Assembly (NCBI GenBank): GCA_951406725.2
Contig: OX597816.1
Coordinates: forward strand, 128,154,001 to 128,218,000
Reading direction: 5' to 3'
Length of the DNA stretch: 64,000 nucleotides
Source of the DNA: Octopus vulgaris
Taxonomy: Eukaryota
Position numbers and translations under genes: made by a program. Below are positions 30,813 to 63,457 of this stretch, in pieces (position 1 is the stretch's first letter; each line of letters begins with the position of its first letter). The notes under the pieces are model-generated. The model was not told the origin of the DNA. It saw only the letters and a program-made list of their open reading frames with translations, and did no database searches.

Positions 30813-31029
30813 TTATATTTATAGATATGCATATATGTATATATATGCATATATTTATAGATATGCACATATATATATATATATATATGCATATATTTAT
30901 AGATATGCACACATATATATATATATATATTTATAGATATGCACACACACACATATATATATATGCATATATTTATAGATATGCACACACACACATATAT
31001 ATATATATATGCATATATTTATAGATATG

Positions 31030-31062
<33 letters not shown>

Positions 31063-31104
31063 CCCTCTCTCTCTTTCGGAGAGGCACAAGCACCTACACG
31101 TACA

Positions 31105-31262
31105 TGTACACACACGGCAGTAACTTCCGCCTGCCAAATTCAATCACAAAGCTTCGGTCGGCTCGGGGCCATAGCAGAAGACACCCACCCAAAGTGCCAC
31201 GCAGTGGGACTGAACCCGAAACCATGTAGCTAGGAAGCAAGCTCCCTAACCACACAGCCATG

Positions 31263-31266
<4 letters not shown>
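31105..31266 (-). mobile_element. SINE family A, 5' half
   Basis: Head with A/B boxes. Confidence 0.75.
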
Positions 31267-31301
<35 letters not shown>

Positions 31302-31309
31302 ACACATAT

Positions 31310-32815
31310 ATGTGAACTAGAGGAGAATTTTCGAGTGTGGAAACAAGGATTAGAATCTAAGGGCCTTAGAGTCAACCTAGCTAAAACCAAAGTCCTAATA
31401 AGTAGGAAGGCAGGCAAACCACAAATCCCTTCAGCTAGATGCCCTGCTCAATCTGTAGAAAAGGTGTAGGTAGAAACTCTACAAGATGTACCCAGTATAA
31501 GCTATGGACACATAAGAGGGGCAGCAATATCAAGTGAAGGCTAACTGGGAAGATAATTTTTCTATGTGGCAGATGCTCCGGAGCAATAAATGCTGAAAAT
31601 GTTCAGAGAACAACTTCTACCACATTCCAGGGAGAAAAACTAGAAGTAGTTGATAGCTTCTGTTACCTAGGTGACCAAGTCAGTAGAAGGGGAGGGTGTG
31701 CTGAAAGTGTAGCTGCTAGAATAAGAATAGCCTGGGCAAAGTTCAGAGAGCTCTTACCTCTGCTGGTGACAAAGGGCCTCTCGCTCAGAGTAAAAGGTAG
31801 ACTGTACAACGCATGTGTACGAACAGCCATGCTACATGGCAGTGAAACATGGGCCGTGACCGCTGAGGACATGCGTAAGCTAGCAAGGAATGAAGCCAGC
31901 ATGCTCCGATGGATGTGTAATGTCAGTGTGCATACTCAACAGAGTGTTAGTGCCTTGGGAGAAATGTTGGACCTAAGAAGCATCAGATATGGTGTGCAAG
32001 AGAGATGACTGCACTGATATGGTCACGCGGTGAGAATGGATGTGGATAGCTGTGAGAAAATGCGCCACACCCTAGCAGTTGAGGGAACCTGTGGAAGAGA
32101 TAGACCCAGGAAGACCTGGGAGGAGGTGGTGAAGCATGACCTTCAAACATTGGGCCTCACCGAGGCAATAACTAGCAACCGAGACCTTTGGAAATATGCT
32201 GTGCTTGAGAAGACTCAGCAAGCACAAGTGAGACCATAACCTTGTGGCCTATGCCAGGGGTGTAACCAGTCCACTTATGCGTACCTTTCCTTCATTGGAC
32301 ACTAAACTCTGCTTGCGAAGACCTGTTGAGGCAAGTGAAATCAAAATCAAATTCGATGACTGGCATCCATGCTAGTGGAGCGCTAAGAGTACCATACAAG
32401 CGAGATTATTGCCAGAGCAACAAGCTGGCCTCCATGGCGATGGCAGGTAAAAAACACCATTCAAACGTGATTGTTACCTGCATCGCCTTACTGGCATTTG
32501 TGCTGGTGGCACGTGAAAAAACATTTGAGAGAGGTCATTGCCAGTGCCGCTGGACTGGCTCCTGTGCAGGTGGCACATAAAAAGCACCATTTAAGCATGG
32601 CTGTTGCTAGTACCACTTGACTGGCCATCATATCAGTGACATGTAAAAGCACCTACAACACTCTCAGAGTGGTTAGCGTGAGAAAGGGCATCCAGCTGTA
32701 GAAAATCTGCCAGATCAGATTGGAGTCTGGTGCAGCCATCTGGCTCGCCAGACCTCAGTCAAATCGTCCAACCCATGCTAGCATGGAAAGTGGACGTTAA
32801 ACGATGATGATGATA
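31310..32815 (+). mobile_element. 5'-truncated RTE-clade LINE, same family as 29555-30812
   Basis: GLRVNLAKTKV, FCYLG, ARIRIAWAKF, LHGSETW, RPRKTW, with stops; (GAT)n tail. Confidence 0.92.
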
Positions 32816-33012: not shown

Positions 33013-34260
33013 TACCAGGTTCAATCAAAATTTGTCCATTTTATAAGGCAAAAAAAACAATAAACAAAACAATATCTGATATTTTCCATCGTTAATATAG
33101 TTACTATTCTTCTCTAATGACTACTTTCTGTCTGTGAATGAGCTTTTTAATGCCATGTTTATAAAATTCCTGAGGTTTAGAAGTGAAAAACGAAATTAAC
33201 TCATTTTCCACTTCTACTCTTAAAGTATATCTTAATCTACTCAAATGATTTTGTAAACTTCCAAAGAGATGGTAATCTGTGTGTGCAAGGTCTGGGGGTA
33301 ATGCATAATTTCCTAGGTATACATTTCTAGGAGATCTTTGTTCTTCTCTGCAGTGTGAGGTCTAGCGTTATCATGATAAAGGGTGACTTTTTTTATGTTT
33401 GTTAATAATGGAAGTTTTTGCTGTAAAGATGTTTTCAAACGTGTTAGCAGTAAGCATCAGCTGTTATTGCTTAATTATTATCTAGCAGCTCATGATGGAT
33501 TATTGTATGCATATCCCACCATACACTCAGAAAAATCTTCCTTGGATACAAGCTACTTCTGGGCTACTCAGCTGGCTCTTCACCATGACAGAGTCACTGA
33601 CGTTTTTGTTTGACATTATGGTAAGATATCCATTTTTCATCTCCAGTAATGAATCTATTCAAAAAAGGCATTTGAAGCCCATCAGATTGCATTGATGCAC
33701 AGCAGTCAAGACATTGCTTGTGGTTATCTGCAAAGGGACCATGCAGAACTCATTTTCCAAGCTTTGATACATGATGAATGGTGGTATGGCTCATGTTGAA
33801 GCCCGTGCTTAGTTCCTGAACTGTAACAGTCAGGTTTACTTCAACAGTGTCTTCCAATGCATCAGGAACCAACCTTTTGGGGTGCCCTTCTCTTATTCAA
33901 TCTGCAACAACACAACGTAAAATGTGAGGAATATTAATGCAGTATATGGGGATCGGACAATAAGTGTAAGCCAGTGACAATGGTGGTTCCAGAAATTCTG
34001 AGCTGGAAGCTACATCCTAGAAGACAAACTTTGTCCTGGAAGATTTGTAGAGCTCGATAAGGATGTCCTGCAAAACTCTGGAGGAACAAAATCCCATCGT
34101 AACTGTTAAGGAACTAGCAGAAAAGCTTGGATGTGGTCATTCAACCAGTCATTCAAGTCAGCACTAGAAGAAAAATGACCGTCTTTGGTTTCAAGACGAA
34201 AGGTGTTCTTCCATCAGGATCATGCTCAGCCACATACAGCGATGATGACATTCCAAAGGT
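33013..34260. mobile_element. degenerate mariner remnants (33013-33860 minus; 33900-34260 plus)
   Basis: Minus ITGDEKW-like, HDNARPH and YKHGIKKL motifs; plus HTH remnant and HQDHAQPH. Confidence 0.7.
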
Positions 34261-41010: not shown

Positions 41011-42224
41011 GTCATCCCATAAGTTCTGTCCGAATTTTGAATAAAGAAAACAAGTGATCAAGTGTTATATTTAATTGAAATTTAATCAATGTACTTTCCC
41101 TGATTATCTATGACTTCCTTCCATCTATTTACAAGCTTTTTAATCCCATCAATGTAAAACTCTTTTCGTTTCAAAGCAAAGAACTCTGAAATGCCAGTTT
41201 TGACCTCCTCCTGGCTTGCAGAAGTTATGTTCCCCCAAATGATTCTGTAAACTATGAAACAAATGGTAGTCTGAAGGAGCAAGGTTGGGAGAATAAGGTA
41301 GAATTTTTTACCAACCAAGGTCTTCGATCTTCTGTGATGTGATCTTTGCAGTGTGGGGTCGCACATTGTCCTGATGAAACATCACTCCTTTTTGATTCAC
41401 TAAAGCGGGTCTTTTTTTCTTCAAAGCTTGGTTCAAATACTCTAATTGCTGACAGTAGACTTGAGCATTGATTGTTGTATTAGATGGTAACAATTCAAAG
41501 TGAATTACTCCTTTGCAATCCCACCAGATAGAGAGAACCTTTTTCCCATGAAGTTCCCTTGTACCAAGCCACTGTTTATGATGTTTAACATTTTGATACA
41601 AGATCTATTTTTCGTCACCAGTTACAAGTCTATCCAAAAAGGGTGAAATGAGTTCAGGAGAATGGAGAGAAGAGCAGATGTCGACTTGGGATTTGCGGTT
41701 GCTTTCAGACAATTCATGAAGCACCTATTTTCCGAGTTTAGGAACCTTTCCAAGTTGTTGAAGACGACGATGAACAGTTGTATGGTTTGAACTAAGCTTT
41801 ATTGCAGGACTTTCAAGTAATGCCTCAAGGAGCTTATGAAACTCAACTGGATGTCCTGTTCGATATTCATCTTCAAGACTGAAATCTCCACTACTGAATT
41901 TCGCATCTTCTGCAAGTTCTTTCATTTAATCATTCTTTCTCATAAACTGAGTGTATGTTTCAAGTCACTTTGGCTGCAGAGTTTCCTTTTTTGTACTCAT
42001 AAAGCATTATGTGCCTCAAATGCTCTTTGGATACTTCCATGTTAGAAAGGGTTTTAATCAAAGAAATTTTAATTCTATTATTCTGTAAAATAATATTTAA
42101 TTAATTTAAATGCACACAAATGCATAAAAATAATTTTTAATTGCATTAGACATTCTAAAATACTATTAAATTTCATTCAATTTTAAAAAAGGTAAAATCC
42201 GACAGAACATATGGGATAACCTGA
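41007..42224 (-). mobile_element. full-length defective mariner transposon
   Basis: TA|TCAGGTCATCCCATAAGTTCTGTC ... GACAGAACATATGGGATAACCTGA|TA; MEVSKEHLRHIMLYEY start, VTGDEK, WWDCKG, HQDNVRPH. Confidence 0.95.
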
Positions 42225-43832: not shown

Positions 43833-46109
43833 GTTTACACAATCACTTGATCTGCTAAATAAGGCTGTTAAAATGCCTTAGAATGTCATTTACAGTTTGT
43901 AGATTGTAGAGACATTAGACAACATTATTCTTGACATACAGAAAGACAAAATGGTGTGACTATGGGTTTGACAGCAACAACAACTAAATAAATATCAGAC
44001 AACTACCACAGGGAGGGGAATTATTTACACATTTAAATGCTCTGCTTTACTCCATGTATCTTGAGACCTATTGCATCAAGATTGTTGCTGTGTATGAATT
44101 TGGTATTGTACATATTCCCAAAGCTCTTCTGAGTCAAACGTCAAACCAATAGGTTAATGGTAGTTATGTAGGAAATGCTGTCTGCTATGTAATATATCTT
44201 TATAATAAATGGATAATAAATAATTGGACATAAATAACAATGAAATGGGACATAAAAGTGTAATAACTTCATGTGAGATAGTAAGAAGTACTAGACAATT
44301 CAAATGTTACTTTGGATTTATAAACATATATGTATTATCTGGCAGAATCCTGTATTAATTCGCTTGTTAGACAATAGCAAAGAAGGTGTAATGAAAGCTG
44401 TTCAGATAATGTATGAGAAGACATTTAAATAAATCATAACTATCCTCTAAAGAATAATTTTAAGTCCTCCCCTTCCATCCTCTCCTTTGGAATTATTACT
44501 GAGGACTTAACACACTCAATGGCTTTTGTATATTGATGACTTACTTTTCATACAAGAGCTGAAGCAATGATGAAACAGTGTAGAGAAGAACTCAATTAAA
44601 AAGATCTAACATAAAACATAGCTAAGCGATCTGAGATTGAACACATTATTAGATAAGGGTAAGTAGTACTAAGCTCAATACCATTACAATACTTAGCATT
44701 TCAAGTATAAAACAATAATTGCAGTAAATAGAAATTCAATACTGCATAATAACTGTAATTAATGATGTTGTGAATCACTGAAACAATACTAAGTGGATCT
44801 TGTGTACAAGTGTAGTATAAAAATAACAAGAAGCAAGTATAGTAAACATAGCTGTTGATATTGCCATTTTGTTGGTGACTAAGTTATATATATATATATA
44901 TATATATAAATGTACATTTCGGAAATATGGTAAATATGAGAGAGGGGATACAGCAACTACAACCTCTTCATGGAACTTAGCTGGGCATTAAAATAAATTT
45001 CCTATATATGAAATAAATCCATCAGTTTAACTTCAATGGATCATTGGGATCATGCGGGGCAAAGAGTGCATCAGTAAATGATTCTTGTAGAAAAATGCCT
45101 ATTAAAATGTTGTAATGCACAGTCATGTATATGTAACAGGATGAGAGGTTCCTGCACTGGATGGGTGCAACTCGCATCCTTTACATTAAATATTAATCGA
45201 AGGAAAGAGTCGAAACTTCCGATTAACTTCAACATATAAATATTTTATTTCTTGATTCACAATATATACATTCTTCATTCTGGGTGAATCAGCAGCCTAG
45301 GAGCATATCGCAGTAGTCAAGTGCAGTGAGCCAAATCCTTTTCCATTCAAGCATAGCAAAGATATGCCACGAGATAGCAGCTTGAGAGAGCTGATAAAAC
45401 ACAACTGTCTTGTTCAGCTGCCGGAGTTCAAGAGAACGATACAAGGAAATTTCGCTGCAGCTAGTTTTCTGCACATGAGCATGAGGAAACTTCCGGCAGA
45501 CCTCCCGGAAGACTCCAACTCTGTGCATGCATGCTGGAGATTTCCAAGATGGCATCGCTACATATAGATACACATAATGCTATATGTTGTTATTTTGTGT
45601 ATACATAAATCGTATGTGAGTGCATTTAAAAGCATATAACAATGATCAATGCACCCTTGTTGACACAAAAGTGGGGTCTAATATACTACAGTTGAATGCA
45701 AACTCTGATTTACTCCTTATTAAAACAGAGGAGTATTCATCTTCATCATTTTACTTCCATCTTTTCTGTCAGCATGGGTCAGCCAGATCTAACTGTGTGT
45801 TGTGACTTCTTACAGTCCATCAGCATCAGACACTCACACAGCAAGAGGTATAAAGAATGGCCTGATCTATTGTTTTATCTTATAAGTTTGACATGAAATT
45901 TACAGGTCGTTCACCTTCCTATCAGCAACAAATCTCCAGAATAGACTGGGTCATTTTATAGTAGTACTGATATTAGAGAGGTAGTTACATATAACTTAAA
46001 TGAATACCCTCTGCCTTACATCATCTCTGCCCATTCCTTCCATGAATTTAGATGAATCAGATACAAAAATTGAATTTCTCTTTAATGAATATTCTTTTAT
46101 TCTTATTCT

Positions 46110-46499: not shown

Positions 46500-48500
46500 T
46501 TTTAAAGTTTAAGTGTCAGTAAATAAGGAAGTCGATATTGAGGACAGTAGTTCAGGAGAGGACTGACTGCAAATGTGTTTCAAGTGGAGTTTAGGATATG
46601 AGAGACAATACCGAGAAGGGAATGTTACATAGCTTGATCAGAGAAGCTGAGATTTATATAAGATACAGAAGAATCACATAGAAAAAGCATGCCTATGAGT
46701 TAGCAGTTATAAAACATAGGGAATGAGTCTTAGTCAATCAACCAATAGTTTTTGGTGGGGATGTGATCAAGTTGTTTGTAAGACAGCCATGTAACATTAT
46801 CATAAATATGAGAACAGAGCAGTACAACATTGTGAGCCTTGCATTTATTTTCAGAGGTGCAGCAACTAATTTTTTCATAGAATTGAAGAGGAAACCCAAA
46901 CTTTGGATTTATATTTGACAATATTATATGCAATTTGGCCATGAAAGATTACATATTGTGGGACTCAACAATCATTATAAAATTTGAGTGTTTTAATTGT
47001 GTTTTGTTGAGATATATGGAGGGTACTGCAAGATTATTTCCATAGTTGTAGCAAGAGTGTTTTGTTCTATTAGAAGTACTTATGTTGTCATGTCTCTATT
47101 GGAAGATGTTGTTGCTATCTTTGCTCATGTAATCAGAGCATGCATAGTGCAAGTTGTCATAACTACATAAGTGTGGATGTGTTGAAAATTCAGAAGTAAA
47201 GAAAGTGTACAAGAGTGTGTGGGGCTAGATGTGGAAATAGGTTATTAATACATGATTTTAAAAAAAAGTGTATAAAACATAACCAAGTCTTGAGTCATAC
47301 CAGATTCCACTGATAATCATCGGGAAAGAGATTGATCAATGCATGCCCTACTAAAATAAATAGTCTGGTAGAAAACATCTGATCAAAAGTGAAGGGATTT
47401 TACACACAGATAACTTACTGTAGATAACATATTTTCATTTGGTAAATACAATCAAATATTTCATTGATATTGATGGCACCAGCATTGCTATGCAGAATCA
47501 CTGAAGGTCAAAAGAGCATTGGTGCATGATGTAGCAGAGCAAGACTACAGTCAGTAGATCTCATTGTACATAAGCTATACCAATTATCAAGACAAAAAGT
47601 TATAAAAATTGAGGCTTTCCTATCACCTTTGACACGAGTGCTGTAGTTGGTGGGTTGGAGAGGTTATTGTTTTGGAGAATGAGATTCACTCTGCCTAGTT
47701 TACCTGAATCTAGTTAAGAGAAGATAATTAAGTTCAGAGAGAGAGAGAATTTAAACATAATAGGATCAAATTCTAGTGTACAGAGTGAGATTAATGGAAA
47801 TGACAATGACAAAAGCAGTCTCTTTGTTGGGTTAAAATGATCAGAGAGAAAGAGTTTTTTGGAGTTTTTTTATTGTACTTATATACTTTGGTGCGACAGT
47901 TGGATTGGATAAGAAGAGTGAGGGAGGAGTTTCGCTGCATATGTGTAATGTAACATTTGAAACAAAACATACACCAAATATGGTGGCTTTATCAATGAAA
48001 GAGAAAGATATTGAGATATTTTTATGGAGATGTGGAAAGTAAAAGAATTCTACGGAGTAGAAAGCCTTCAAGTAAGAGCCAGAAGACCCATCTTCAGAGC
48101 ATCAGCAAGGGAAACACTGAAGGGATTTGGGATTTGTAATATTTGGTTGTATACGTAGCATAGGGATCCAACAAAATAAAATGACACCAGTTGCCTATTT
48201 CACTGTCTTGGATGGGACAGAGGTGAAAAATTAGTTAGCTCAGAACAGGTTTGAGCCATACTTAGTTAACTAACTTAAAGTTCCAGAGATGGAGGAAGGT
48301 ATTGTTTTCTGCTAGGAAGTTGTGAGATGGATTCACTTGATTAAACAGCTATCAAATGAATCCATGTTAATATAGTCAGTGATGACAAGTTTAAGGTTAG
48401 GTTTGGAGATGCCAAAAATGTGAAGGGTATTGGAAGAGACTGCATATCAGGGACATGGGTTTAGCAAGAACACTAATGAGCACATTCAGTTCAAAATAGC
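46500..48500 (-). mobile_element. highly decayed CR1-group LINE remnant
   Basis: LCSHIYD..KQLDHI resembles the post-RT motif YCSHIW..LD.IQ; boundaries approximate. Confidence 0.45.
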
Positions 48501-49391
48501 TGATGATTTGTCCTTTCTATCATCATTGTCACTAAGGAACATATCTGTATACAGAGATAGACTGAGACATATGACCTCTCATTAAGGATTGGAGGTCAAA
48601 CAAATGCTGAATGCAGGTGGAGTTCAAACAGTAGAGATTGCTGCTGAATGTAAAGAAATAGAGATGACAGATTTTGGGTTAGAATGATCAGACATGTTTA
48701 TAGCTGCTTCCCTTCCCAGATGAGAGTGGGAAATTATAGATAATGTAGATGCCAACTTTTAGAAACAAGATGGAATATAGAGTATGCTCTGTATTAGAGA
48801 TAGGAATACCTTGTTGAGTAGTAATATGGCTTACATGTTACTAGAAGAAGATAATGGCTAGAATGAATGTTTAACAAAAGCTCACTGATGTTGGTATAGA
48901 AAAGGAAATTTATCCAGCAGATTGATTATTGCTCTTTTTATTAGAATTTTTCATAATTTTTACAAGAACAACTTATTACAACTATATATTTACACAAATA
49001 AAAACATGATAGTCAGCTATAGAACAGGTGCGTCATTATATAAAAGTGGGAGAATTTTACTTTTAATATCTTTAAATTGCCTCAAGCAAAAGCTGAACAA
49101 TCATCTAATGTAAGTATATAATTCCAAGTTCCAAATATTTCGGCATCCAATAATATGATAGTCTAGTTGAGATATATTTAGCCTGATCTTTCAGCATCTA
49201 ATAAATAGCATGTTAACCTTGTTCAGATATTAGTACTCTAGTCAATAAAGTATCCAACAAGAGAACTGAGAGGGCAAGTCCAATTTTATGTTGCTACAAT
49301 GAAATTATTTTAATCAGTTCTCACAAGAATTAATGCACCTTAAAGGCATCTCAGTTTATTAATACAGGATACTGCATGAAATGAAACTTAC

Positions 49392-49520
49392 TGTTCTCTC
49401 TTTTGATGTATTCTGTTTTGGTTTTTTTCTTTTGTCTTCTTAATATTCTTTACAACTGATTGAGTTAGGTTATAAAAATTATTGGCAGATGGTAGAATTT
49501 CTAAGCCCATTTGATCACTC
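49392..49520 (-). CDS. candidate host-gene coding exon 2 (129 bp), product unknown
   Basis: TTTTTATCTGCAG|G AGT GAT CAA ATG..AGA GAA CA|GTAAGT; open frame (M)SDQMGLEILPSANNFYNLTQSVVKNIKKTKEKNQNRIHQKRE; alternative in-frame acceptor at 49552. Confidence 0.6.
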
Positions 49521-51411
49521 CTGCAGATAAAAACTATTTTCAAAGACAAGTTCTGTAAAGAATAAGAAAACAAAATGTTAAAGAATATAACGAGCAAAAA
49601 GATTGAATGAAAATGTAATAAAGCTAATAATAGTTCATTGTCATATTTTTTAAAAATTCCATAAAAGTTTCATTAGCCAAAGGAATATCAAACTATAATT
49701 TTTCAAGTTTAGTATAATTCTGAATGCAGATATTTGTTTCCTGTTGGATTAATATAAAGTATTATTAAAGGAATGCATGATGTTCAAACAACTGCATAAA
49801 CCATTATCCCTGTTTCCAGAATATCTTAGTGAGCATCTGTCAGTATGCATGAGTCATATCTAAAATATATCAAACTTCAAGAGATATAAAGCATCGTATT
49901 ACCAAGATATCATTTGGTTCTTTTTTTTGTTTTTTTAAATTAATTTTAGTCATGAAATAAGGAATTCAAAATTTTAATTAGATTAGTTATGATAATTAGA
50001 TACTCAGTTGGAAACAAAGATTAGAACTGAAGCCATTGAAGGAAGCCTTGTGGCTAAGTATTATTAATATAATGAAGGAATCTCTTCCAACGGAATCTTA
50101 TTGACAACCTTATTAGAAGAAAGAAGGTTAAGAGAGTAAACTGAGAAAGCAAGTTAAAGAAAGAAAGAAAAGATCATAGAAAAGAAAAAAAACAATAAAG
50201 AATGGATGACTGTTCTCTATTATTCATCAGAAACATCTGAAATTCCCTTTTATATTAAAAGCACTAAACTAGAATTAGATTCTAAATTGCTAAAATCTGA
50301 AGGAAACTGGGGCTTAACAAAAATCTGTAAAGAACCAGGGTCTCAGATTGGATGATCAACTTTGAACTCAATATCTATTAATTAATGAGAGCTGAATTTA
50401 CATCTGGATAGGTAAGCAGTTTTCACAGATAACATTCACTGGAGGAATTAGTCTTCATCGCTAATTAAACTGAGGAATGCAGAAATATAATAAAACGTCT
50501 ACAGCAGATGTGAGCTCATAACCTATAAAATGGTTGTCCATTTTTACTTCAATCAAGCAATTATTATTGCACAGAATTTAATAATTTTGTTTCAATAAAA
50601 ATAAATTTGCTCTGTTGGAACATTTCAATTTGAAAATGAAATATAATTTTACACATATTATTGCTTGTAACAGTCACAAAAGAAATTGTGTCTATAATTT
50701 GATGTGATCTTTGGGTTGAAGATAAAAAAAAAACTAGAATTGAAGACCCGAGTAATAATTTTTGAAGCTGACTTGGAATAAAAATGAAATTTTTGACTTA
50801 AAAAAATAGAATAAAAATATCATAAAAATAAATAAAAGAGGAAACAATATGGAAATAGATAACAAGAAGTTACATTGTGTTTATGGAAGAAATTCTTTGT
50901 TGGTAATACGAAAAATTATAAATTTTTAGTTTAATCTTGTGAAGTGAGTATTCTATAAAGTGCAATGAGGAAGTACTTTTTACATTATATATGACAAGTA
51001 GAGAAATGCTGTGTTGGAACAGACTCATCTAACCCATACCAGCATAGAAAACTGGTTGTAAAAACAATGATGATGGTGATATATTTACTTGGAGCAGGAA
51101 TTTTTGCTCCTTTGCCACTTTTAGGCCTTCTTAGACAGATGAGTTTGATGCAGTTTCTTTTTTAAACTTTTAGTCTGGAAAGAAGGTAGCACTTATGATC
51201 TCTTATAGGGTTTCTGAGACTGATGGGAAGGAATAAGGTAACCTCAAACTGGAGAGTCCCGATCAAGGGTCTGCAACAGGGTGGATGATACTACTAAAAG
51301 TATCCCATGTGCCAGGTGTTGGTGTGGAATCAGGTGATAAAATTAAGTACTCCACACTAAGTGAACAACCCAATTGTGCTCAGCTTTAACATCCATTGGT
51401 TGATACTTTAA

Positions 51412-51629
51412 TCCTTTAAAATTTAAATTGTCCATATCCGGCCCAACATTTTCTACCTGCTTTATGTTCAAACTGGTCAGATCTGGCTTCTCACACCTAC
51501 CAAACAATGCCTTTAATAAAGAAATATAATCATCATTGAAATCCCAAAGCTACATGATAATACATAATTAAATGACAACTGTGAATAAATAAGCATTACA
51601 TTTGACAGAGTAATCTGAATGCTAAAGGG
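51412..51629. mobile_element. piggyBac-like MITE
   Basis: TTAA|TCCTTTAAAATT ... AATGCTAAAGGG|TTTA. Confidence 0.6.
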
Positions 51630-52535
51630 TTTAGGAAGAACTAAGGAAGTGAAAGGATTTAAAGAGGTAAGTCAAGGATGTTTGTGCATTTAAGTACCAT
51701 CTCACGTATTTGATTAATAAATGTTGGTTGCACTTGATCATTGAAGGTCAGCAACTTATCACAGTAAAAGTACTTTCTTATTCTGTAGAAGCTTAGTCTT
51801 TGACCATGTGAGATATTCAAAGATTACGAGGCTGAACATTTGTAGTTACCTTAAAGAAATGGTTCATGTTGTTCAACCCAAAGTCATCTCTGATGGAATA
51901 GACATTTGATCAAAATTATTCTACCTGTAACTTTCCCATATTTTATTCAGATAGAGTGTATCTTGGACCACATTATCAAATATAACAACATCTTTAAGAT
52001 GAGGGGATGTGATATGAAGGAGATTTTAGCTGTTATATTTAGTATGTTAAGTACTCTCCTTGAAACTCCTTCATTGGCTTGCATTTCCAGTGCAAATGAT
52101 AACAGACTACTCTTGATATAAAGCAGATTTATATAACCTTTGCTATATCATGATGCAATATAGCAATGAATAGAGAAGACTTAATAATAAAACACTTAAA
52201 AGAAATGAGAATTTGTGGAGACAAGTTAAAAATTATAATTTAGTTGAAAGAGTATTTATGTATCAAATACTTCAACTAAAAAAAAAAAGCTGCACTGGAA
52301 TTATTATATAGAATGAATGTGGTTAATAAATTCCATAAGGTGGAAGTATGAATAGGTTTTAAAAGAGAAACCAGGATATCAATTGTCAAAGAATAAGGAG
52401 TCCTAAACTACTCAGTTTTTGCCTTGTAAATTATAGTTGAGAAAAAGTAACGAGATAATTCTCTGGTGAACTCTAACTTATACATTGTTTTCCTTATTTT
52501 GATTATATAAAAGATATATTTTATCCCTTTTACAA

Positions 52536-53040
52536 GGTGGTGAGCTGGCAGAATTGTTAGCATGTTAGGCAAATTGCTTAGTGGCATTTCATCCATCTTT
52601 ACGTTCTGAGTTCAAATTCTGCTGAGGTTGACTTTGCCTTTCATATAAATGACTAGTCCCTTCCCCAAAAATTTGAGGCCTTGTGCCTCTAATAGAAAAG
52701 ATTTTTCTCACTTTTACTGCAAGATACTAGTTTCTATCCCCTCTGTCATACTCTGATCTATAATCATCAGACATAAAATTGCCCCTCACAATACTACTCC
52801 CACCTCAGTTAAGAAGTCTTGTCTTGCAAGTTATTTGGTGATCTTGCTGGTGCTGGGGTTATGTACAAAGCGCCCAGTATAGTCTGTAAAGTAGTTGGCA
52901 TTAGGAAGGGTACCCAGCCATAGAAACTATGCCAAAGCTGAAAGTACAGCTTGTCACAGTCCTCTGATTCATTACCACCTGTCAAACCATCCAACCCACG
53001 CCAGCATGGAAGACAGATATTAAAACAATTAGGATGAGGA
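52536..53040 (+). mobile_element. SINE family B (52536-52702) and an old RTE-tail fragment (52810-53040)
   Basis: Family motifs: GAGCTGGCAGAA head; TTGGCATTAGGAAGGG..CCAACCCACGCCAGCATGGAA. Confidence 0.7.
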
Positions 53041-54764
53041 AGATCCATCATCTTGATTATAATTTTTTGTATAACAGTTAATAATAGTGTTGCTGCATTA
53101 GACATTACTTTGTTATACTTAGTGTACTTAAAATAATTGACTACACAAGCTATTATCATAATGATATCCAAATCTGATGCAGCAACTTTTCTTGCCTTTT
53201 AATGCAGCAAATTTTTCCTTGCTTGCATGACCATAATTTCATAACCACATTTATACTGATCCACTACAGCTTACCAATTTGTTGGTTATTGGTTCAATTA
53301 AAAGTCAGCTTTCAATACACAATTTAATCATATTTCTAAATTCGCAACATCTCATGCCTATTCATTTCTCTATTACTGTAGCTAAGTGTGCTTGAATTAT
53401 TGCAAACACACCTCTCACCTAATTATATCTTCATTCAAATAAATACATTGTCTTGCAATTTGAATCCTTCAAAACTGATTTTGCCCTTGAACAAAACAAA
53501 TCAAATTTAAGTGTTAAAATTTCAGAGATTTTTGGTTTATATCAAAGGCAGCTTTTACATCTCAATGCTGCAGTCATTGCATTTATTGTTTAAGTCGAAA
53601 ATTGGAATGACAGTATGAGAGAATAGGTAGAAAGAACAGGAAAGAGTGTAACAGGAAAAAGTTCAATTCTAGTAGAGACTTTACTGTTATTTTCATTATC
53701 TATCAAGTAAATGCACTAATATACCTTTTAAGTCATATGCCAACTAAAGTGTTACTCACCACGAAATTTTTGTGTTAGTGTGTGGGAAGTGAGAGGGAAA
53801 TTAAAGCTTTTTCTTGTTAGCACATAAAATGAACATAAAATATATTTTTCTACTAGGAAGTTAATTCCATCCAAGCTCAGTCGGTTTAGTTAGAGTAAAG
53901 TGAAGAATTGCTTGTTTATGAACCTCAGGAAGATCCTTTAGAATGTAAATACACACATGCTCATACACACACACACACACAACCTTATGGAATTTATCAA
54001 CTGCATTCATTTTATATATACACATGTATATTATCATTTTTGGAATGCAACAATATTTGTATCCTACCTATCTCTTATACACACTAACATCTATTTGTAT
54101 GTGTGTGTGTGTTTGTATATATATCTATATGGAAATGCAAAACACAAAACAAGAATACAAGAGATGTTCATTGTCAATATTAGTTTGACACCCAAAGAAA
54201 AAAGAAAAGAGTAAATGGTACTATGTCTTGAACACAGTTCTTCCAGTGCTAGAGAAAAGTCAAGGAGAAACTCAGAAGTGTAGCAAGAGAAGGAGATAAA
54301 GAAAGAAAAGTGTCAGGAAAACCCCAGTAGGAATCAGCTTGCATGTTCAGTCTATATGTGCATGCATATGTGTGTGTGTGCATGTACATGTGTGTGTCTG
54401 CTTGTGAGTGTGTATACACATGTCCATGTATACATGCACAGCTCCCATTCTCTTTAACAGAAAAAGACGAGTACAATATATAAAATTCTTTCAAATAATG
54501 GTTTCTTACATAAGCACAGAACCAGAAATATTCAGGGAAGTAAAACTAATTCAAAAATTACAATGCTCATGACTTATTCAACAACATTAACAATGTGAAA
54601 GAATGGAATTAGTTCTCAGTGGGAATTGAAATTAGACAAAACTTTCCACCCAACTAGTGTCTACATAAAGTACACTGAAATTCAGATGTCAAAAGGCATA
54701 TTGAACACAGGATATAGTTCCAGAATAAATATTTTGCTTCTGTTATGAGTACACCATTTTCACT

Positions 54765-55072
54765 CGGTACGTAAAAAGCACCATCTGAACGTGGCCAATG
54801 CCAGCACCACCTTGACTGGCTTCCGTGCCAGTGGCACGTAAAAAGCACCAACTGATCATGGCCATTACCAGCCTCGCCTGGCACCTGTAACGGTGACACA
54901 TAAAAAGCACCCACTACATTCATGGAGTGGTTGGCATCAGGAGGGGCATCCAGCTGTAGAAACACTACCAGATCAGACTGGAGCCTGGTGCTGCCTCCTG
55001 GTTTCCCAGACCCTGGTTGAACCGTCCAACCCATGCTAGCATGGAAAACGGACGTTAAACGATGATGATGAT
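54765..55072 (+). mobile_element. RTE-LINE 3' UTR fragment
   Basis: Tandem units plus canonical (GAT)n end. Confidence 0.85.
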
Positions 55073-55399
55073 AAAAATCAAAGAAATTATGATCTATGAA
55101 TGGTTAAGATGTTTTTTTCAGTTTTACTTCATATTTATCTTTGTGGGGTTTTTTTTTTAAGTAGTTTGATCTGGAGAAAGGGATTGTTTTCATAGCCTTC
55201 TCAGGCTCTTCAAAACCAATGAGATTGATTATACCATTTGGTATTTGTTATAACACTTAGCATTCTGAGTTCAAATCCTAATAAGGTCAACTTTGCCTTT
55301 CATCCTTCACAGGTTGATATACTTGACTGTTCCCTTTCCCCAAAGTTTTGACCTTGTGTCTATATGAAAAAAAAAAATCAATGTTCTTGAACCAATGCA

Positions 55400-56560
55400 A
55401 GTTGATAGTTACCAGAAAGAATAGGAGTAGGGAGGGTATTCTAGAGATGTGATGTTCTATGGAGATGGAAGAATTGGATTTAGTAGTTTGTGCAGGAATT
55501 TGAGAGGAGTAAATACAATATGAATGAGAAGAGGAGAAACAAGTGAGCTATGAGGAACTGAGTGAAGGTGACAGTGATATAAGAACAACCAGCTCCAAAG
55601 AGCCGTGGTCAAAGTAGTAGTGATAGGTAGAATGAAAAAGCAGCACACCTGTAGGCCAGAGTTTAGAGAGTGTTAATGAATTACTTCATGCCAAACGACA
55701 TTAGGTGACCCCCCCACTTTTGTCTTTGATGTTATCTAAAATATCTATATGAAAAGGAGCAACCCTATCCCAAATATGAGAGAAGTATTCCCGTGTAAGT
55801 TTCTTTAAGATTTGAAGGATTGGTGGTTGATGTGGATGGTGGGAAAGATGTTCAGATTCTGAAGAAGGTCAGCTTTGTGATGAAACCTTTGCTAAGTAGA
55901 GGATGTGTAATTGCCAGGAAAGTTCTTCAGTGAAAGAGAGACCTAATATTTGTGGTGAATTTGAGGGTTCTGGTGGCATACTGTTTACATTTAGAACAGG
56001 AATATGATATCGTTTTTATTGTGTGTAGTTATGTCTTTGTGTTATTGAAAGGAACAAGATTGGCACAGTTACTTTGTAGAATGTTTTCAAAGACTATAAT
56101 CAATAAGTTAAAGCAGGTTTAGCATATGATAGCTGTGAATAATGCTTGAATGCATAAAGTCTGAGAGGAACAAAAGATGGTACTATCTGTATAGAAATGG
56201 ATATGTTTGAATTTAATCCCCCTATGACTTTTATTGAGTATTATGACTTTTATTGAGTATCTTGACTTTTATTAGGTAGTTCAGCTTTTATTGGTTACTA
56301 CTTTGGAAGATGTAGGCAATTGCCCTCAACTAAATTTTAATCACTGTATTTGGTTGGTTACTGCTACTAGATTATTAAAAGAACAGATGAAGACAAGGAA
56401 TTTAGTATCAGGATTAAAAAAAAAAAAGGCTAGACTTACTACCCAGCGTTGCCAGGTAAAGTATTCATGGAATTGTTTGTCAGTTTGTAGAATAGGAATT
56501 CATGGACTTATTTAATTGGAACTGTCCAAACAATAGTCATCAATTTAATGTCTGAAGAAA
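55400..56560 (-). mobile_element. decayed CR1-group LINE RT fragment
   Basis: Minus LTREYFSHIWDRVAPFHIDILDNI at ~55730-55800. Confidence 0.55.
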
Positions 56561-56719
56561 ATTGTGAGTATGAATACATTGTCTGAAAGGATATTGATAA
56601 TGTTTTCTGTAATAAAGAATAGAGACAACTTTACCTCTTGGTTATTTAAAGGGGAACGTTTCTGGTAGATCTATGTCAGTGTGTGTGTGTAGGTCAAAAA
56701 GACAACGTTTTTTTTTCCT

Positions 56720-56750
<31 letters not shown>

Positions 56751-56853
56751 AAGACTGTATGTGCATATATATCACAGATAGCGTACGTGTGTTTGTGTTA
56801 ATAGAGTTCTAGTATTATTAAGATGAATACATTGTCTGAAAGGATATTGATAA

Positions 56854-57158
56854 TTATGGAGATGTACTTGCATAGCAAGTGACTTGATCTGAGATCATGC
56901 ACTGAACAAAAACAATTCAGCATGGGAGATGCTTGTAAGCCATTTAAGAACACACTAAAACCCTTAGTTTCACTTCAACATTTAAATTTAGTTTGTGTCA
57001 AAATATTTTCGTCACTTTGAAACCACAACCTGTTTACTGGCAAAACTTCGTGAGCGTCGAAAATATTCTTGACACAAATTAAATTTAAATGTTGAAGTGA
57101 AACTAAGGGTTTTTGTGTGTTCTTAAATGGTTTACAAACATATTCCACGCTACAGTTC
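56854..57158. mobile_element. 305-bp PLE-like insertion with internal inverted repeat and 10-bp TSD
   Basis: ATATTGATAA at 56844-56853 and 57159-57168; arms ~56930-57012 and ~57057-57141. Confidence 0.7.
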
Positions 57159-57808
57159 ATATTGATAAATGTTTTCTGCAATAAAGAATAGAAACAACCT
57201 ATGTCAGTGTGTGTACGTCAAAAAGTCGATGTTTTTCTTTTTCTTAGAGAGTGATAGAGAGAGAGCTAGCGTGAAGACTATGTGTGTTTATATGTCACAG
57301 ATAGCGTACGTGTGTTTATGTTGACCTGTTGGGTTACCAGGAAAGTCTGAGTTTACCAGCAACGGAGTTTTGTTTCGTGGGGTTTTTTTTTCTTTTCCAG
57401 ATTATTTTGTATGCTTTCAACGAATGTGACATCGAAATCATATGTAAACGGATCCTTCCCCGCTACAAAAGCAAAGATTTAACTGCTGTTTCTTGCACGC
57501 CCTTTATCGCAAATAGCTGTTACGTGGTAGCAGGGCGTGCTAGAAATAGCAGGCAAATATTTGGAGGTGAGATACATTGAATGCACTCGAAAAAAACAAC
57601 GGAAAAAAATTATTTCACACCGAGGTTATGAATGGGTCTTTTACAAAATATTTACCGTATTTTTAAAGTAATTTTCACTTTAAAATATCTTTTAAATATA
57701 CAAAAAAAAAGTTTGTAATGGTATTCACTTGAAAAATAATTAAAAAACACTAAAATATAGTCTTTAAAGAAAGCTAAAATATAGATACTTACTGTACAAA
57801 CAACTTAC

Positions 57809-57815
57809 ATTTTTG
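57809..57815 (-). other. candidate 3' end of exon 1 with split start codon (CAAAAAT|GTAAGT)
   Basis: Consensus donor GTAAGT; AT joins the G at 49520 to form an in-frame ATG in AAAATG context; region is CpG-rich. Confidence 0.5.
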
Positions 57816-59425
57816 GGTACTAGTCGCGGAGACTAGACCCGGTGCGCGCAGACGTGCATCCGCGCTAGCCAGTCGTAGGTAGTCGATCCTACAGCGACTT
57901 GCGTATGCAAATGAGCTGATTGGCGCAACATGTTGTTATATATATATATTGTATTGAGTATTAAAGGAAGTAGTGAGTACTTAGTATGAAAGATTAAGAA
58001 AATGAGAGAGACTGAAACAACGTGTTAACGATACAAGATACTTTATTCGACTGCCGTTGTTGTACAAGTTAATTGTTTTGGCGGGAAACAAAGTGAAAGT
58101 CCTTTTATCAAGGGAGACAATGGGCGACGTTGATTGTTCATGTTTGTTGTGATGATTATATAACACAACACTGCAAAAACTAAGTTAATAGCGAGCCCCT
58201 ACTGAAGCTCAGGAAACATTTTTCAACGATATACGGTGTATATTATTTTAAAGACAATTGCGTTTTTTTTTTTCGTTACAAAACAATTAGAAGCATTGAA
58301 AAAAAAGCAAAACAACCTTAAGGACAGTCAAACATTTTTTTTTTTTTCAAAGTAGACCACTACAGGCGACAATTCACTCGTGTTTACTTTGAATAGCTAC
58401 GGCAAACTGCAGCATGAAAATTCAAAAAAAAGTTTTTAAAAATTGGCTTAACCCCTCTCCAACAAGGTAATTTTACTGTAGGCTTCAACAGGAAAATCGG
58501 TTACTGGTGACAAGCCAACAACGTGGGGTCAGAATTTAGTTGCCAGGCAGATAGAGGAAGGGTAGTACAGTGACAGATCACAGACGAAGATAACACTAAT
58601 TGCCTCGTATGAAATGGTTCACTCTGTTAACTTATGAGGCTCCTGTCAACGACCAAGTCTCTTCAATGTAAACTTATAGTAAACCAAATTTCCCCCACGT
58701 AGAAATAAAACATTTCTATGAAGTAAAGAGTTACATTACGTCTGGTTAAAAATAAACGCCTTTGATCAGGTCTGCACGACCAGGGCAGTCTTGGGACTGG
58801 GAACTGTTCAGCTAAAGTTAAAGACGAGAGGTCAGTTGGGTCTTTGGAGAAACTGAAAACAAGAAGCAAACACAGACCTTGTACAACTTCGGTCAAGAGA
58901 TATCTTCCACTGAGCTGTTAGAAATAGCAGCCGAATTTTTTTTTTTAAGTCAAACTGAACAATGCAGTATTGGATTTACAACAAAGCGGGATGGCCACGA
59001 CCAAAATGTCTAATAATTTAGGGTTGGTCAGGGGTTAAATTCCAGTTGAAAGAGAACGAGCATAGCTGAATGGTTAACGAAGTTTGCCGTAGCTATTCAA
59101 AGTAAACACAAGTGAATTGTCGCCTGTAGTGGTCTACTTTGGAAAAATAAATGTTTGACTGTCCTTAAGGTTGTTTTGCTTTTTTTCAATGCTTCTAATT
59201 GTTTTGTAACGAAAAAAAAAAAAAAACGCAATTGTCTTTAAAATAGTATACACCGTATATCGTTGAAAAATATTTCCTAAGCTTCAGTAGGGGCTCGCTA
59301 TTAACTTAGTTTTTGCAGTGTTGCGCCAATCAGCTCATTTGCATACGCAAGTCGCTGTAGGATCGCCTACCTACGACTGGCTAGCACGGATGCGCGTACC
59401 GGGTCCAGTCTCCGCGACTAGTACC
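57816..59425. mobile_element. non-autonomous foldback DNA transposon, Merlin-like
   Basis: Perfect 8-bp TSD CATTTTTG (57808-57815 and 59426-59433); termini GGTAC..GTACC fit GGNRM; ~345-bp TIRs (57816-58408 with insert; 59081-59425). Confidence 0.85.
57931..58165 (-). mobile_element. solo LTR (235 bp) in the left TIR
   Basis: TGTT..AACA ends; 5-bp TSD CAACA; empty site GGCGCAACACTGC preserved in the right TIR; AATAAA on minus at ~58042. Confidence 0.8.
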
Positions 59426-59524
59426 CATTTTTGAAATCACATTCACTTAAAAATATTTATAAATGATTAAAATATTGTGTATGTCAAAAAGGCGACGAGA
59501 GCACGAAACTGTTTGTGTTGATTC

Positions 59525-59581
59525 ATACGTCATGACATTTATTACGTCATATGTGTGTGTATTCTGTATGTGTTGACGTCA
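59525..59581. promoter_or_regulatory. cluster of CRE/ATF-like sites
   Basis: TGACGTCA at 59574-59581, TTACGTCA at 59542-59549, ACGTCA at 59527-59532. Confidence 0.4.
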
Positions 59582-59600
59582 TGGAAGCCATGTTTTTCTG

Positions 59601-59810
59601 GTGACCGGTAATAAAGTTACAGGAAAAAGGTCGCAATAATAAAGTCACAATTAACTTATGGTGACCAGTAATAAAGTCACAGCAAAAAAAAAGTCATAAT
59701 TAATTGATGGGATCCATCCCCCCAGGAAAAAAAAAATCCCCCCCCCCACACGCACACACACCTCGGACAAAACCCCTGTGACTTTTTCCTGTATTTTTTT
59801 TTTTACCTGG
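59601..59810. mobile_element. small MULE-like terminal-repeat derivative
   Basis: Repeated GTGACC(G/A)GTAATAAAGT(C/T)ACAG and inverted CCTGTGACTTTTTCCTG. Confidence 0.4.
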
Positions 59811-61644
59811 ATTGGGTTTTTTTTGTTAAGAAATAACAAACAAATTGTATTTAATCGTTTCCATTAATAAATAAAATTCGTACTGCCCTGCATAAAGTAA
59901 GTATCAAAATACATACGTAAAAAAAAAAAATTAAGATACGGTATACTATTTCTGAGATATTTCAGGTACAAAATGACATCTAGAGTTTTAGAATTATTAA
60001 GATAAGCTCAATTTTAATTATCAAATTAGCACAATATCCAGTTTAAACTGGTATTCAAAAATATCACAAGAAAACAGGTTGTTTCATGAACATACATGGA
60101 AGTAATGTTTTTGTAACAACACTCAAAGTTTTTGTAATAGGAGGGGCAAAGTTTGGTTTAATCAATCTTAGTTTATTATTGCTATTTTTTATTTTTTTTT
60201 ACCAAATACTAACTGATGTTTTGACACATTTACATAAATCACCAAGATTGATCACTTACTGACCCACTCCATCAATTCTTACTGTTGCAAGTAACTGAAG
60301 CATAATTGAAGAAAGTTTCTTTGGCACTTGTGTAGCTGAAGAATCTAGCACTTGTATAACTTGGGGATTCTCTTGCCTTAAGTCAGCACAACTTAATCAC
60401 TAACTGATGTAGGCAGTTGAATAAGGAGACTTAAGCAATTAACTCCATGTTGTTTACAAAAGGTAAATATTCATTGTTAGTTTTTGTTCTCTTTTTTTTA
60501 CTGGCATCAAAAAATTAAAAGTAAACCGAGTTTGGTGACTTTTAATACTGAAATACAATGCACAAACTTGATCCCCTGGAACATGGTGCTTGATATCTTA
60601 CAATGAGTACCACCTTATCTTCATTACAAAGGGAGTTAACGAAGTAATAAACAAAACAAAAACAGAATTTTACTGCAGTTCTAGGTTAATTCCACTACGG
60701 TAAATTTCACTATAGGTAATATGAATACACTTTAGCTCACATTTTATTCATATATTTACATAAAAATGATGGCGAGTACATCAAAATCAGACAGATCTTC
60801 AAATCCATTGACAACGTCATTAATTGGTAAAAATGCAAAAGCACAAAAACACTTAATTTTAAGCTGTAAACTTTCATCCGTGTTGTATCGCCTACTCTCA
60901 TTAAGTGCACATATCTTCCACCAAATAGACTGTCCGAGATGAAAAACACACCCAACTACTTCTAAATGAGGAAATACAGAAACATATGAATCATGGAGAG
61001 CTTTTTTCGAAGTCCTTGAGACAGGTCAAGGGTTGACAATTTGCCCTTAAATCCTGCACAGCAGACAAAACATGATGGCATGAGGCTTCTTTTTAGTCAG
61101 GAAGTAAGGAAAATAGCCTGGGCTCGCATTACCCTTCAGTGATGGTATGTAGCATGAAAAGCTGACACCACAAAATAGGAGACACATTAAAAGTCCCATC
61201 ACAGGACCAATTTTCAGAGCTTTCTAGATCATCCAAGCCTTTTTCTGAGAAAAGAACTAAAGTTCTGTCTGAGTCATCAATGCTAATGTCGAAGATCAAA
61301 AACTAGGACCTATTTTCTAAGTACTTAACTGCATCAGGAATTTCAACCCTTAAACAACAAGTTGGAAATGCTGGTATTCCTAAAGCGTGTTGCTTCCAGT
61401 TACGTATGTTACGTGAAATTCTAGGAATATTTTGCAACAATGTCTGTGCTTCCTCATCGAGATTTTGTACAGAAGTAGCTATTACTTCCCACGAAGATAC
61501 TGTGCCCGTTCTCATTACTCCACTTTTCATTGAATTAACTGCCTTTCAGGCATTAAAGTCTACACTGATTGCTGAGTGATTATGGGAGCCTTTGAAAAAA
61601 TAACTTCTGGTACACTGGAGTTGAAAGTGGTATGTAGTCTAGTC

Positions 61645-62146
61645 TGTTAGTGAATTTTTTTCCCCACGATGTTCTGGACCCCAGTTATGAACTCATTTAC
61701 ATACAATCAGAGCTCAACTATCAAACTAATTTATGAGTGCATAACAAGTGATGAGCGATAAGATAAGGTCACTTGGATAAGGAATGACCATGCTTGTTGT
61801 TCTTGTTTTTGTTTCAACCATGGCTGCCTCTGCGTAGTTATCTGTGTTGTTTACTTTGTAAAGCAGTAAGTGGAGAGGGCTGCTAGCACATCACACTCTA
61901 CCCACATCTTTACCATATGGGGCCCTAACAAAATCCGATAATAGGTATAGATGCAAATCTCTCCAATTCCTTGTCTCCTTCTAAAATCAGGCATAACTTA
62001 TCAATCGGGTGACTTACAACACCGTTCTTCGTCTTGAGTTGACTTGGTAGAATGCATTTGTTAACTTGACAAGGTCAGCTCTGATTGGCTGTGTGCAAAT
62101 GAATTCAATACTGGGGTCTGGAATTGTGGGAAAAAAATTTTGCAAC
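61645..62146. mobile_element. MITE with ~75-bp diverged TIRs inserted in the FLYWCH coding region
   Basis: AATTTTTTTCCCCACGA..GACCCCAGT..CATTTACA..CAATCAGAGCT is inverted at 62075-62146; splits the zinc finger between C and HNH. Confidence 0.7.
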
Positions 62147-62329
62147 TTGGCAACCTTTTTAAAAACGTTCACAACACCAATATGTTATTGTTTTGCTACT
62201 GTTAACTCCATTCTTTTCGTATCTATGGTTCTCTTCATCGCAAAGCTTATGTCTGTTCTTCTCTGATGTTATAAATGTTGCCATGGTTGAGGGTTTCAAA
62301 GTTCAAAGTTAAACTGAATAGGAAAAAAA

Positions 62330-63043
62330 ATATCTTTTCCTTTCGAACAGCAGTTTTCAACACAATTTCTAGTTAACTAAACACTTTTAAACTTCGTATA
62401 CTGGTAGAATGTGTCAAAATAAAACATTTTTTTCTCTTGGCTTTCTTGAGAAAATTGTAATTTGTAAGTTTAATTTTTCGAATTTTAATCAATCAATCGC
62501 CTCAATTGAGCTAAAATCATTTGCTGCCTCTAAAACCGAGACAACATCCTGTCACTAACCCTAACCCTAAATTTTAGCCTTTCGTTTTTTTTTCTTAATT
62601 GTTAAATTAATTTAATTGTTACGCGTGTCTAAAATTCGTTTTGTTTTTTGTTTTGAGATATACGTGTATTGTTTAAACTATTTTCCATTGCTTTAGAAAA
62701 AAAAACCCGAAAGCAATGGAAAATAATTTAAACAATTAACAAACAAAATAATTCTATAATTTTATACACACGCTTTCTGTACGTAAACATTCCGTACGTA
62801 AACATAAGTGACAGGATGTTGTCTCAGTTTTAGACGCAGCAAATGATTTTAGCTCAATAGAGGCGATTGATTGGTTAAAATTCGAAAAATTAAACTTCGT
62901 TAAACTTACAAATTACAATTTTCTCAAGAAAGCCAAGAGAAAAAAATGTTTTATTTTGACACATTCTACCAGTATACGAAGTTTAAAAGTGTTTAGTTAA
63001 CTAGAAATTGTGTTGAAAACTGCCGTTCAAAAGGAAAAGATCC
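62330..63043. mobile_element. young MULE-type foldback MITE
   Basis: ~225-bp near-identical TIRs (62332-62555 and 62807-63043); 9-bp TSD GGAAAAAAA (62321-62329 and 63044-63052). Confidence 0.9.
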
Positions 63044-63457
63044 GGAAAAAAATTGGCAGTACGGTGAAATTCAGTTAAAGAATTAGTAACAATGGCATAA
63101 ACCTATACTTTAACTAATGTCTAATTAGTTGAGAAGTGTGTAACAAAGGCGTGTGTAATTAGATTTCTATAGACTGTTTAATGTAGTTGAATTTCCCTTA
63201 GTGGAATATACCTAGCGTGAAATTTTACCGTAGTGGAATTTACCAGTCACGTTAACTGCTTAGTCTGGTCTGCATAGGCATGGACATATGCTGTCCTTAA
63301 CACCAAAATGTATTTTGTATAATGTGATAATTGTCATTGGTAATACACAGCTATGGGAAAGCAGACTAGGAGACAGCATTGTTAAAGAGAGAATGGCCAC
63401 TTTAATATGTTTCCATACCTTTACTTCTTCAACAAGTTGTATATAAATATATATATA

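Follow-up and report, generated by a model that had tools for sequence, protein, structure and literature searches.

Classic Foldback elements carry terminal inverted repeats (TIRs) made of tandem-repeat modules, hAT and P elements leave 8-bp duplications and have termini that start with CA or TA, and the maize Ds and dSpm alleles are cases in which transposons are spliced out of host transcripts. Merlin elements are defined by TIRs of 24-462 bp with a terminal GG, an 8-9-bp duplication and a DDE_Tnp_IS1595 transposase, and they are abundant in Octopus bimaculoides, with 191 sequences (PMC8101967). Mutator-like elements (MULEs) have TIRs of 14-500 bp and duplications of 8-11 bp, 9 bp being the usual length in the groups tabulated, and are described as preferring insertion near genes, carrying promoters in their TIRs and giving fold-back dsRNA upon read-through (PMC6446971). 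Octopus genomes are about two-thirds repeats and include Merlin and Mutator families; for Octopus vulgaris, 18 Merlin families are reported, two of them recently active, along with 21 Mutator families that have been active recently (PMC13282606).

Here we describe an insertion in a 64,000-nucleotide stretch of O. vulgaris DNA (assembly GCA_951406725.2, contig OX597816.1, positions 128,154,001 to 128,218,000 of the forward strand), called the window below and used for all coordinates. We confirm the insertion, which is an ordinary one: it belongs to a known class of non-autonomous long-TIR elements and contains a nested, probable solo LTR.

Structure of the element

The whole TIR transposon occupies 57816-59425 (1610 bp), with GGTACT termini on both strands and hence ends of GG...CC. 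It is bounded by identical 8-bp target-site duplications at 57808-57815 and 59426-59433, each reading CATTTTTG (CAAAAATG on the minus strand). The initial annotation had reported a perfect duplication with similar arms, and had read the duplication as the reverse complement of an 8-mer in Kozak/ATG context; the CATTTTTG pair is indeed identical and inverts to CAAAAATG, and the arms, each of ~345 bp, match. The plus strand has nine copies of CATTTTTG in 64 kb. The ends of the 8-mer are complementary (CA...TG), and duplications of 6 and 4 bp also fit the same sequence, with element termini of GGG or TGGG, whereas readings of 7, 9 and 10 bp do not fit. Eight base pairs is the most economical reading, requiring the fewest coincidences, for the single copy examined.

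The left TIR is in two parts, an outer segment at 57816-57930 that starts with GG, is CpG-rich with a GC content of 58%, and carries an octamer-like ATGCAAAT at 57905 and ATTGG at 57919, and an inner segment at 58171-58408. A 672-bp spacer (58409-59080) with no long ORF separates it from the right TIR at 59081-59425, which is an unbroken 345 bp with CCAAT at 59326 and ATTTGCAT at 59337. Comparison of arm against arm gave matches of E 5e-106 (247 columns, 94.3%) and E 9e-40 (115 columns, 89.6%); with the nested insert excised, the 357 aligned columns comprise 331 matches, 10 substitutions (8 of them transitions) and 4 indels. The TIRs and the duplication are far above chance. Within the window the arms match only each other, the spacer has neither a transposase match nor a second copy, and blastn and tblastx of spacer, insert and TIR returned no relatives elsewhere in the 64 kb. 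Because one copy is visible in the window, the family, copy number and boundaries rest on a single locus.

Overlooked in the initial annotation was a 235-bp insert within the left arm, at 57931-58165 on the minus strand. It has TG...CA ends with a short terminal inverted repeat and is flanked by a 5-bp duplication, CAACA, at 57926-57930 and 58166-58170, that is, the TG...CA ends and a duplication within the 4-6 bp of a solo LTR. Its minus strand carries a TATA-like GATAAAAG at 58109 and AATAAA at 58047, and these features, in this order, make up what we take to be the anatomy of a solo LTR. We infer that the insert is a solo LTR, the alternative being a short TIR element that makes a 5-bp duplication. 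It resembles Ty3/Gypsy-like solo LTRs in its TG...CA ends, short inverted repeat, 5-bp duplication and ordered TATA-like and AATAAA signals, and differs from them in having no second copy in the window and no family match.

The insert also determines how the arms can pair. Folding of the minus strand gave 336 arm-to-arm pairs in 10 helices, the longest perfect helix being 72 bp, and, owing to the left-arm insert, these form two stems, an outer one of 105 pairs and an inner one of 231 pairs with a bulge of ~240 nt between them, rather than the single ~345-bp duplex that had been proposed for a read-through leader.

Superfamily and age

The superfamily assignment depends on the ends, as no transposase that could decide it was found in the element. 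The TIR starts with 5'-GG under the 8-bp reading, the duplication is 8 bp and the TIR is 345 bp, all within the definition of Merlin, a superfamily present in Octopus; TIRs of hundreds of base pairs and a duplication in the 8-11-bp range also suit a Mutator-like or Foldback element. None of the six read-through frames of the element matched Pfam or NCBIfam, and no DDE_Tnp_IS1595 domain or remnant was found in them, which departs from a complete Merlin element, as does the nested solo-LTR-like insert. A missing transposase is expected of a non-autonomous copy, and because of it Merlin and Mutator are indistinguishable here. Little weight can be given to the lack of Pfam matches in the spacer and in host exons, because Pfam also overlooked the decayed transposase of a neighboring MULE. 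Differences from the Mutator-like and Foldback groups are that the interior shows no similarity to MULE transposase, that the TIRs do not match those of the decayed MULE at 60684-63244, and that the element has none of the tandem-repeat TIR modules of classic Foldback. With tblastn, an O. bimaculoides MULE protein had no match in the element, and its only significant match was the remnant at 60786-61530. The GG termini disagree with the CA or TA starts of hAT and P elements. The evidence supports a non-autonomous element with Merlin-type ends, its Merlin membership unproven and Mutator the alternative; the earlier designation as Merlin-like therefore holds for the GG ends, the 8-bp duplication and the TIR length, but with the transposase absent a Mutator-like label fits too. 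A literature search, mostly outside the scope of subscription papers, returned nothing relevant on a matching TIR or on such an insertion.

The arms differ by 2.9% (95% interval 1.4-5.3%). With a calibration of 0.09 per 25 Myr (PMC13282606), this would put the age at about 4 Myr at most, on the assumption that the arms arrived identical, and the 1.5% per arm is inside the 2% bar that the same source sets for recent copies. A perfect 8-bp pair would survive with a probability of 0.79 at 2.9% divergence and still with 0.43 at 10%. Recency of the insertion is thus allowed, not shown, and the proposal that a perfect duplication and similar arms mark a recent, possibly polymorphic allele is not supported by these values. 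The nested LTR-like insert points to a longer history than a single new jump would leave; the element may, however, have brought it along.

Neighboring elements

The same 6 kb is densely populated by further foldback elements. A decayed Mutator-like element at 60684-63244 has ends made of degenerate inverted 15-bp tandem units and, on the minus strand, the remnant of a transposase that shares 68-76% identity with the O. bimaculoides MULE protein; the broken transposase at 60759-61025 is 76% identical, and the tblastn match extends over 60786-61530. Nested in this remnant is a second foldback at 62332-63041, with 235-bp arms that are 93% alike and a right end of CC; the GGA-rich A tracts on its flanks may represent an 8-9-bp duplication. 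On the other side, 56855-57160 holds a MITE-like palindrome (56919-57151) with a near-perfect 8-9-bp duplication; it lies within one copy of a local duplication (56561-56799 versus 56814-57322), and the palindrome-free copy shows the empty site. We considered the right flank of the insertion as a third copy of the 56560-57322 duplication and rejected it, as its scores were reached by 5 of 200 and 15 of 200 shuffles.

Further away, decayed Tc1/mariner copies lie at 2480-3385, 10452-11462 and 41085-42100 (by Pfam match) and at 33107-33896 (by eye), and pieces of LINE and Penelope-like elements were recognized by eye near 30169-32352 and 18223-18807. In the single-copy region 45292-45579, each strand carries open frames of 88-96 codons that overlap those of the other; CpG is raised there, and Pfam gave no match. 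At 46501-56500, where CpG is lower than anywhere else in the window (o/e 0.12-0.15), the plus strand has a strong skew (G>C, A>T), which may be the signature of either old LINE relics or an intron.

The promoter-like setting

The element splits a CpG-retaining island at 57000-59900, ~1.3 kb without the element, that has CpG-depleted DNA on either side. Computed on DNA that is single-copy within the 64-kb window, CpG o/e was 1.09 at 57323-57807 and 0.89 at 59434-59900, against 0.12-0.28 in seven distant blocks over 1-56.5 kb and 0.22 at 59901-60680; flanks that are single-copy in the window may be young repeats genome-wide that retain CpG likewise, and the 92-bp palindrome at 57472-57563 and the local duplications at 56560-57322 confound the flank values. 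Equally CpG-rich 485-nt segments made up 61 of 1121 over 1-56.5 kb, and all of them fell in six stretches of multi-copy repeats. In octopus it is gene bodies that are methylated, and the start sites of many genes are free of methylation (PMC9476566); for this reason the island appears promoter-like, and the long-range CpG depletion on both of its sides suggests gene-body methylation nearby.

A cluster of CRE-like sites lies at 59527-59581, with ACGTCA at 59527, 59544 and 59576 and the full TGACGTCA at 59574. Three sites within 60 bp occurred in none of 1000 dinucleotide shuffles of 57000-60000, in a post hoc test picked once the cluster had been seen. On the minus strand, an initiator-like TCATTT is found at 59461-59466, ~30 nt upstream of the insertion site, and a pyrimidine-initiator-like match at 59492; these motifs were judged by consensus, and hexamers of this type are frequent, with 117 on the plus strand. 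Taken together, the setting around the insertion is probably promoter-like, on the circumstantial support of the CpG island, the CRE cluster and a pair of GTAAGT donors 16 bp apart, described below. The initial annotation had gone further, stating that the element cut off a leader and the CRE cluster from the donor of exon 1: the cluster exists and is non-random, but a minus-strand gene is unsupported and has plus-strand rivals.

Other sequences recur around the site. At 59596-59801, beside the CRE cluster, a pair of 48-nt repeats plus a weak copy in inverted orientation looks like a small decayed TIR element. The 9-mer GTCAAAAAG occurs window-wide only at 56693, 57217 and 59483, in a shared 22-31-nt motif that flanks the insertion and may be either a duplication relic or a repeated regulatory site. 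A 39-nt AT-rich unit is also present on either side of the insertion, with a score found in 0 of 200 shuffles.

The putative start codon

The left duplication runs into a splice signal, as a GTAAGT donor has its +1 position at the final minus-strand base of the duplication. This donor (intron start 57808) scored 8.7 and ranked 18 of 3631 minus-strand GT sites; a second GTAAGT, 16 bp from the first (intron start 57792), scored 7.4 and ranked 60, the pair spanning 57787-57811 and the minus strand of the window holding 15 GTAAGT in total. All splice scores are from rough matrices built from consensus frequencies. Unspliced, the duplicated ATG reads ATG-TAA, its G being base +1 of the donor, and because of this it could be used as a start only if exon 1 ended in AT and the next exon began with G.

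The best minus-strand candidate for an internal exon is 49392-49552, with acceptors at 49552 and 49520 and a donor at 49391. Acceptor 49520 alone rebuilds the ATG, and the frame from 49520 to 49392 is open for 43 codons into the GTAAGT donor. It is the first downstream acceptor to begin with G and have an open frame into a donor, and it rebuilds the ATG in frame; donors were present for 5 of 47 such G-starting acceptors, and three of these five are in repeats. The stronger acceptor, 49552, does not rebuild the ATG and breaks the frame, leaving an ATG at 49510 as candidate start. The ten-base Kozak-plus-donor string AAAATGTAAG occurs once across the two strands of the window, and this uniqueness, together with the in-frame rebuilding at 49520, favors the start-codon model somewhat.

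Searches for a host gene count against a coding start. The peptide of the candidate second exon at 49520 showed no homolog in a comparison with proteins of more than 94 aa, O. bimaculoides proteins among them, a null that the tool itself rates as weak evidence and for which the O. bimaculoides MULE match is the control; the Atlas gave no usable match for it. We found no host-gene match above the Pfam cut-off among 400 stop-to-stop ORF pieces of at least 40 aa (209 minus, 191 plus, with pieces over 40% in window-internal repeats or low complexity excluded); five pieces matched Tc1/mariner transposase domains above the cut-off, and eight gave weak matches below it. A separate search of 21 read-through frames, taken from the element, from the MULE remnant and from the DNA on either side of the element, gave a single Pfam match, at E 0.34, which was rejected. 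There were no Rfam and no tRNA matches, and the strand skews seen in unique DNA did not decide between the two gene orientations.

That a minus-strand first exon ends at the insertion-site donors is a tentative proposition, to which we give slightly less than even chances, and that the split ATG is the start codon of such an exon appears improbable; it is more probable that the duplicated ATG is not a start codon. The insertion had been described as lying 5 nt upstream of the putative start codon of a minus-strand gene. Neither part of that description is supported, as the ATG reads ATG-TAA, would need an AT/G split splice and has a fitting exon without a homolog, and as the best-scoring exon is on the opposite strand, among plus-strand rivals.

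Competing explanations of the site

The gene structure implied by a split start codon can be stated in full. A minus-strand gene would start near 59466, its exon 1 would end in AT and splicing to 49520 would build the start codon, so that the element sits 5 nt before that codon and splits the promoter from the donor. This would account for the Kozak-like CAAAA ahead of the AT, for a donor ranking 18 of 3631 with a second one 16 bp on, for a CRE cluster 60-115 nt upstream of the initiator-like site, for a CpG island extending ~800 bp into the supposed intron, and for a 43-codon open frame from 49520 that terminates at a GTAAGT donor. The 49520 peptide has neither a homolog (a weak null) nor an Atlas match, however, the stronger acceptor 49552 breaks the frame, and no further host exon was found among the 400 ORF pieces compared with Pfam, and we regard this structure as quite improbable. 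The island may instead serve a plus-strand transcript, with the element absent from any mature leader. The best-scoring exon of the window is on that strand, at 57401-57566, with the strongest acceptor of either strand and 55 open codons; it ends 241 bp left of the element and ranks first by combined score, at 25.5, with the best minus-strand exon at 20.0. If it is real, the element would lie within the following intron. In another version, the CRE cluster would drive a plus-strand exon that ends at a GTAAGT donor at 59894-59902 (intron start 59897, score 8.7) at the right-hand border of the island, with the element upstream of the promoter; CpG depletion begins immediately past this donor, and CRE sites work in either orientation, which suits this transcript as well. 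The peptide of 57401-57566 has no convincing homolog, with one marginal match (E 9.5e-4, 30% identity) and Atlas scores of 0.79 and 0.76 that are below the Atlas bar, the poly(dA:dT) tracts of promoters resemble acceptors, and the exon candidate contains a TE-like, 92-bp imperfect palindrome (57472-57563). A plus-strand transcript is unlikely in our judgment.

It is also conceivable, if rather doubtful, that there is no gene at all, young DNA transposons and local duplications having piled up to form the CpG-rich stretch; the donors, the CREs and the Kozak-like 8-mer would then be coincidences of AT-rich repeat DNA. The interval 56.9-63.3 kb contains at least five more TE-like inverted structures, CpG-rich young TEs are found elsewhere in the window too, and the recurrence of GTCAAAAAG and of the 39-nt AT-rich unit on either side of the insertion makes the empty site partly duplicated DNA. 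Chance agrees poorly with CRE clustering in 0 of 1000 shuffles and with two GTAAGT within 16 bp of the site against 15 on the whole minus strand, and the CpG depletion is long-range on both sides and suggests gene-body methylation nearby. We conclude, with moderate confidence, that the best explanation as a whole is a non-autonomous TIR element in a promoter-like island, whose duplicated ATG is probably not a start.

Consequences of read-through

A minus-strand transcript through the element would meet several signals. As had been predicted, the ATG of the distal duplication opens a new upstream ORF, which is present in the sequence at 59428-59381 with 15 codons; this ATG is one of 14 on the minus strand in 57808-59433. 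A candidate donor lies in the TIR at 59394-59402 (intron start 59399, score 7.8), 29 nt past the distal ATG, in phase 2 like the original AT/G donor, and the frame stays open when this donor is spliced to 49520. A second TIR donor at 59370 (score 7.9) is past the stop of the upstream ORF, and the two donors are both within the first 60 nt of the distal TIR, with an acceptor at 58852. In the proximal TIR, the CCAAT and octamer-like sites point outward. For a read-through transcript, excision of the element as an intron, early termination or re-initiation would be likelier than a mature leader that contains the long duplex.

We propose the following course of events for the TIR element in the promoter-like island. 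A non-autonomous cut-and-paste element with ~345-bp TIRs would have been mobilized in trans by a Merlin (or Mutator) transposase from a presumed helper, and would have inserted at an 8-bp site in an island that retains CpG and that was presumably unmethylated. Before or after its arrival, an LTR retrotransposon would have entered the left TIR and been reduced to a solo LTR, a step that we infer because of the TG...CA ends, the 5-bp duplication and the poly(A) signal. The element codes for nothing and would have no activity of its own, so that its effects would be in cis only. A minus-strand first exon ending at the GTAAGT donors, if present, would most likely be non-coding, and the element could be tolerated through splicing from the distal TIR donors or through re-initiation in the proximal TIR or the solo LTR, or expression could be lowered by the poly(A) signal at 58047.

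One more specific reading is very improbable on present grounds. In it, the start codon duplicated by the insertion is one that the first intron splits, and the element makes good its own damage: transcripts from the CRE promoter would be translated from the duplicated ATG and spliced from the TIR donor at 59399 to exon 2. The foldback would thereby leave as an intron and nine N-terminal residues would be added, with the donor that retains the upstream ORF and the LTR poly(A) signal giving competing non-productive isoforms. The likeness to the maize Ds and dSpm alleles is that donors near the element end could excise most of the element; the difference is that the octopus case is a prediction from sequence.

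Significance

The entry of such elements into open promoter DNA is expected, and as it stands the importance of the insertion is small. A reading as a regulatory allele is speculative. The locus does offer a usable candidate for a cis-regulatory TE allele, as a nested TIR and solo-LTR insertion in the middle of a CpG-retaining island that also carries a CRE cluster. In-frame rescue through the TIR donor, if borne out by transcripts, would make it a clean animal case of a DNA transposon that lies in a first intron and has extended the N-terminus of the host protein.
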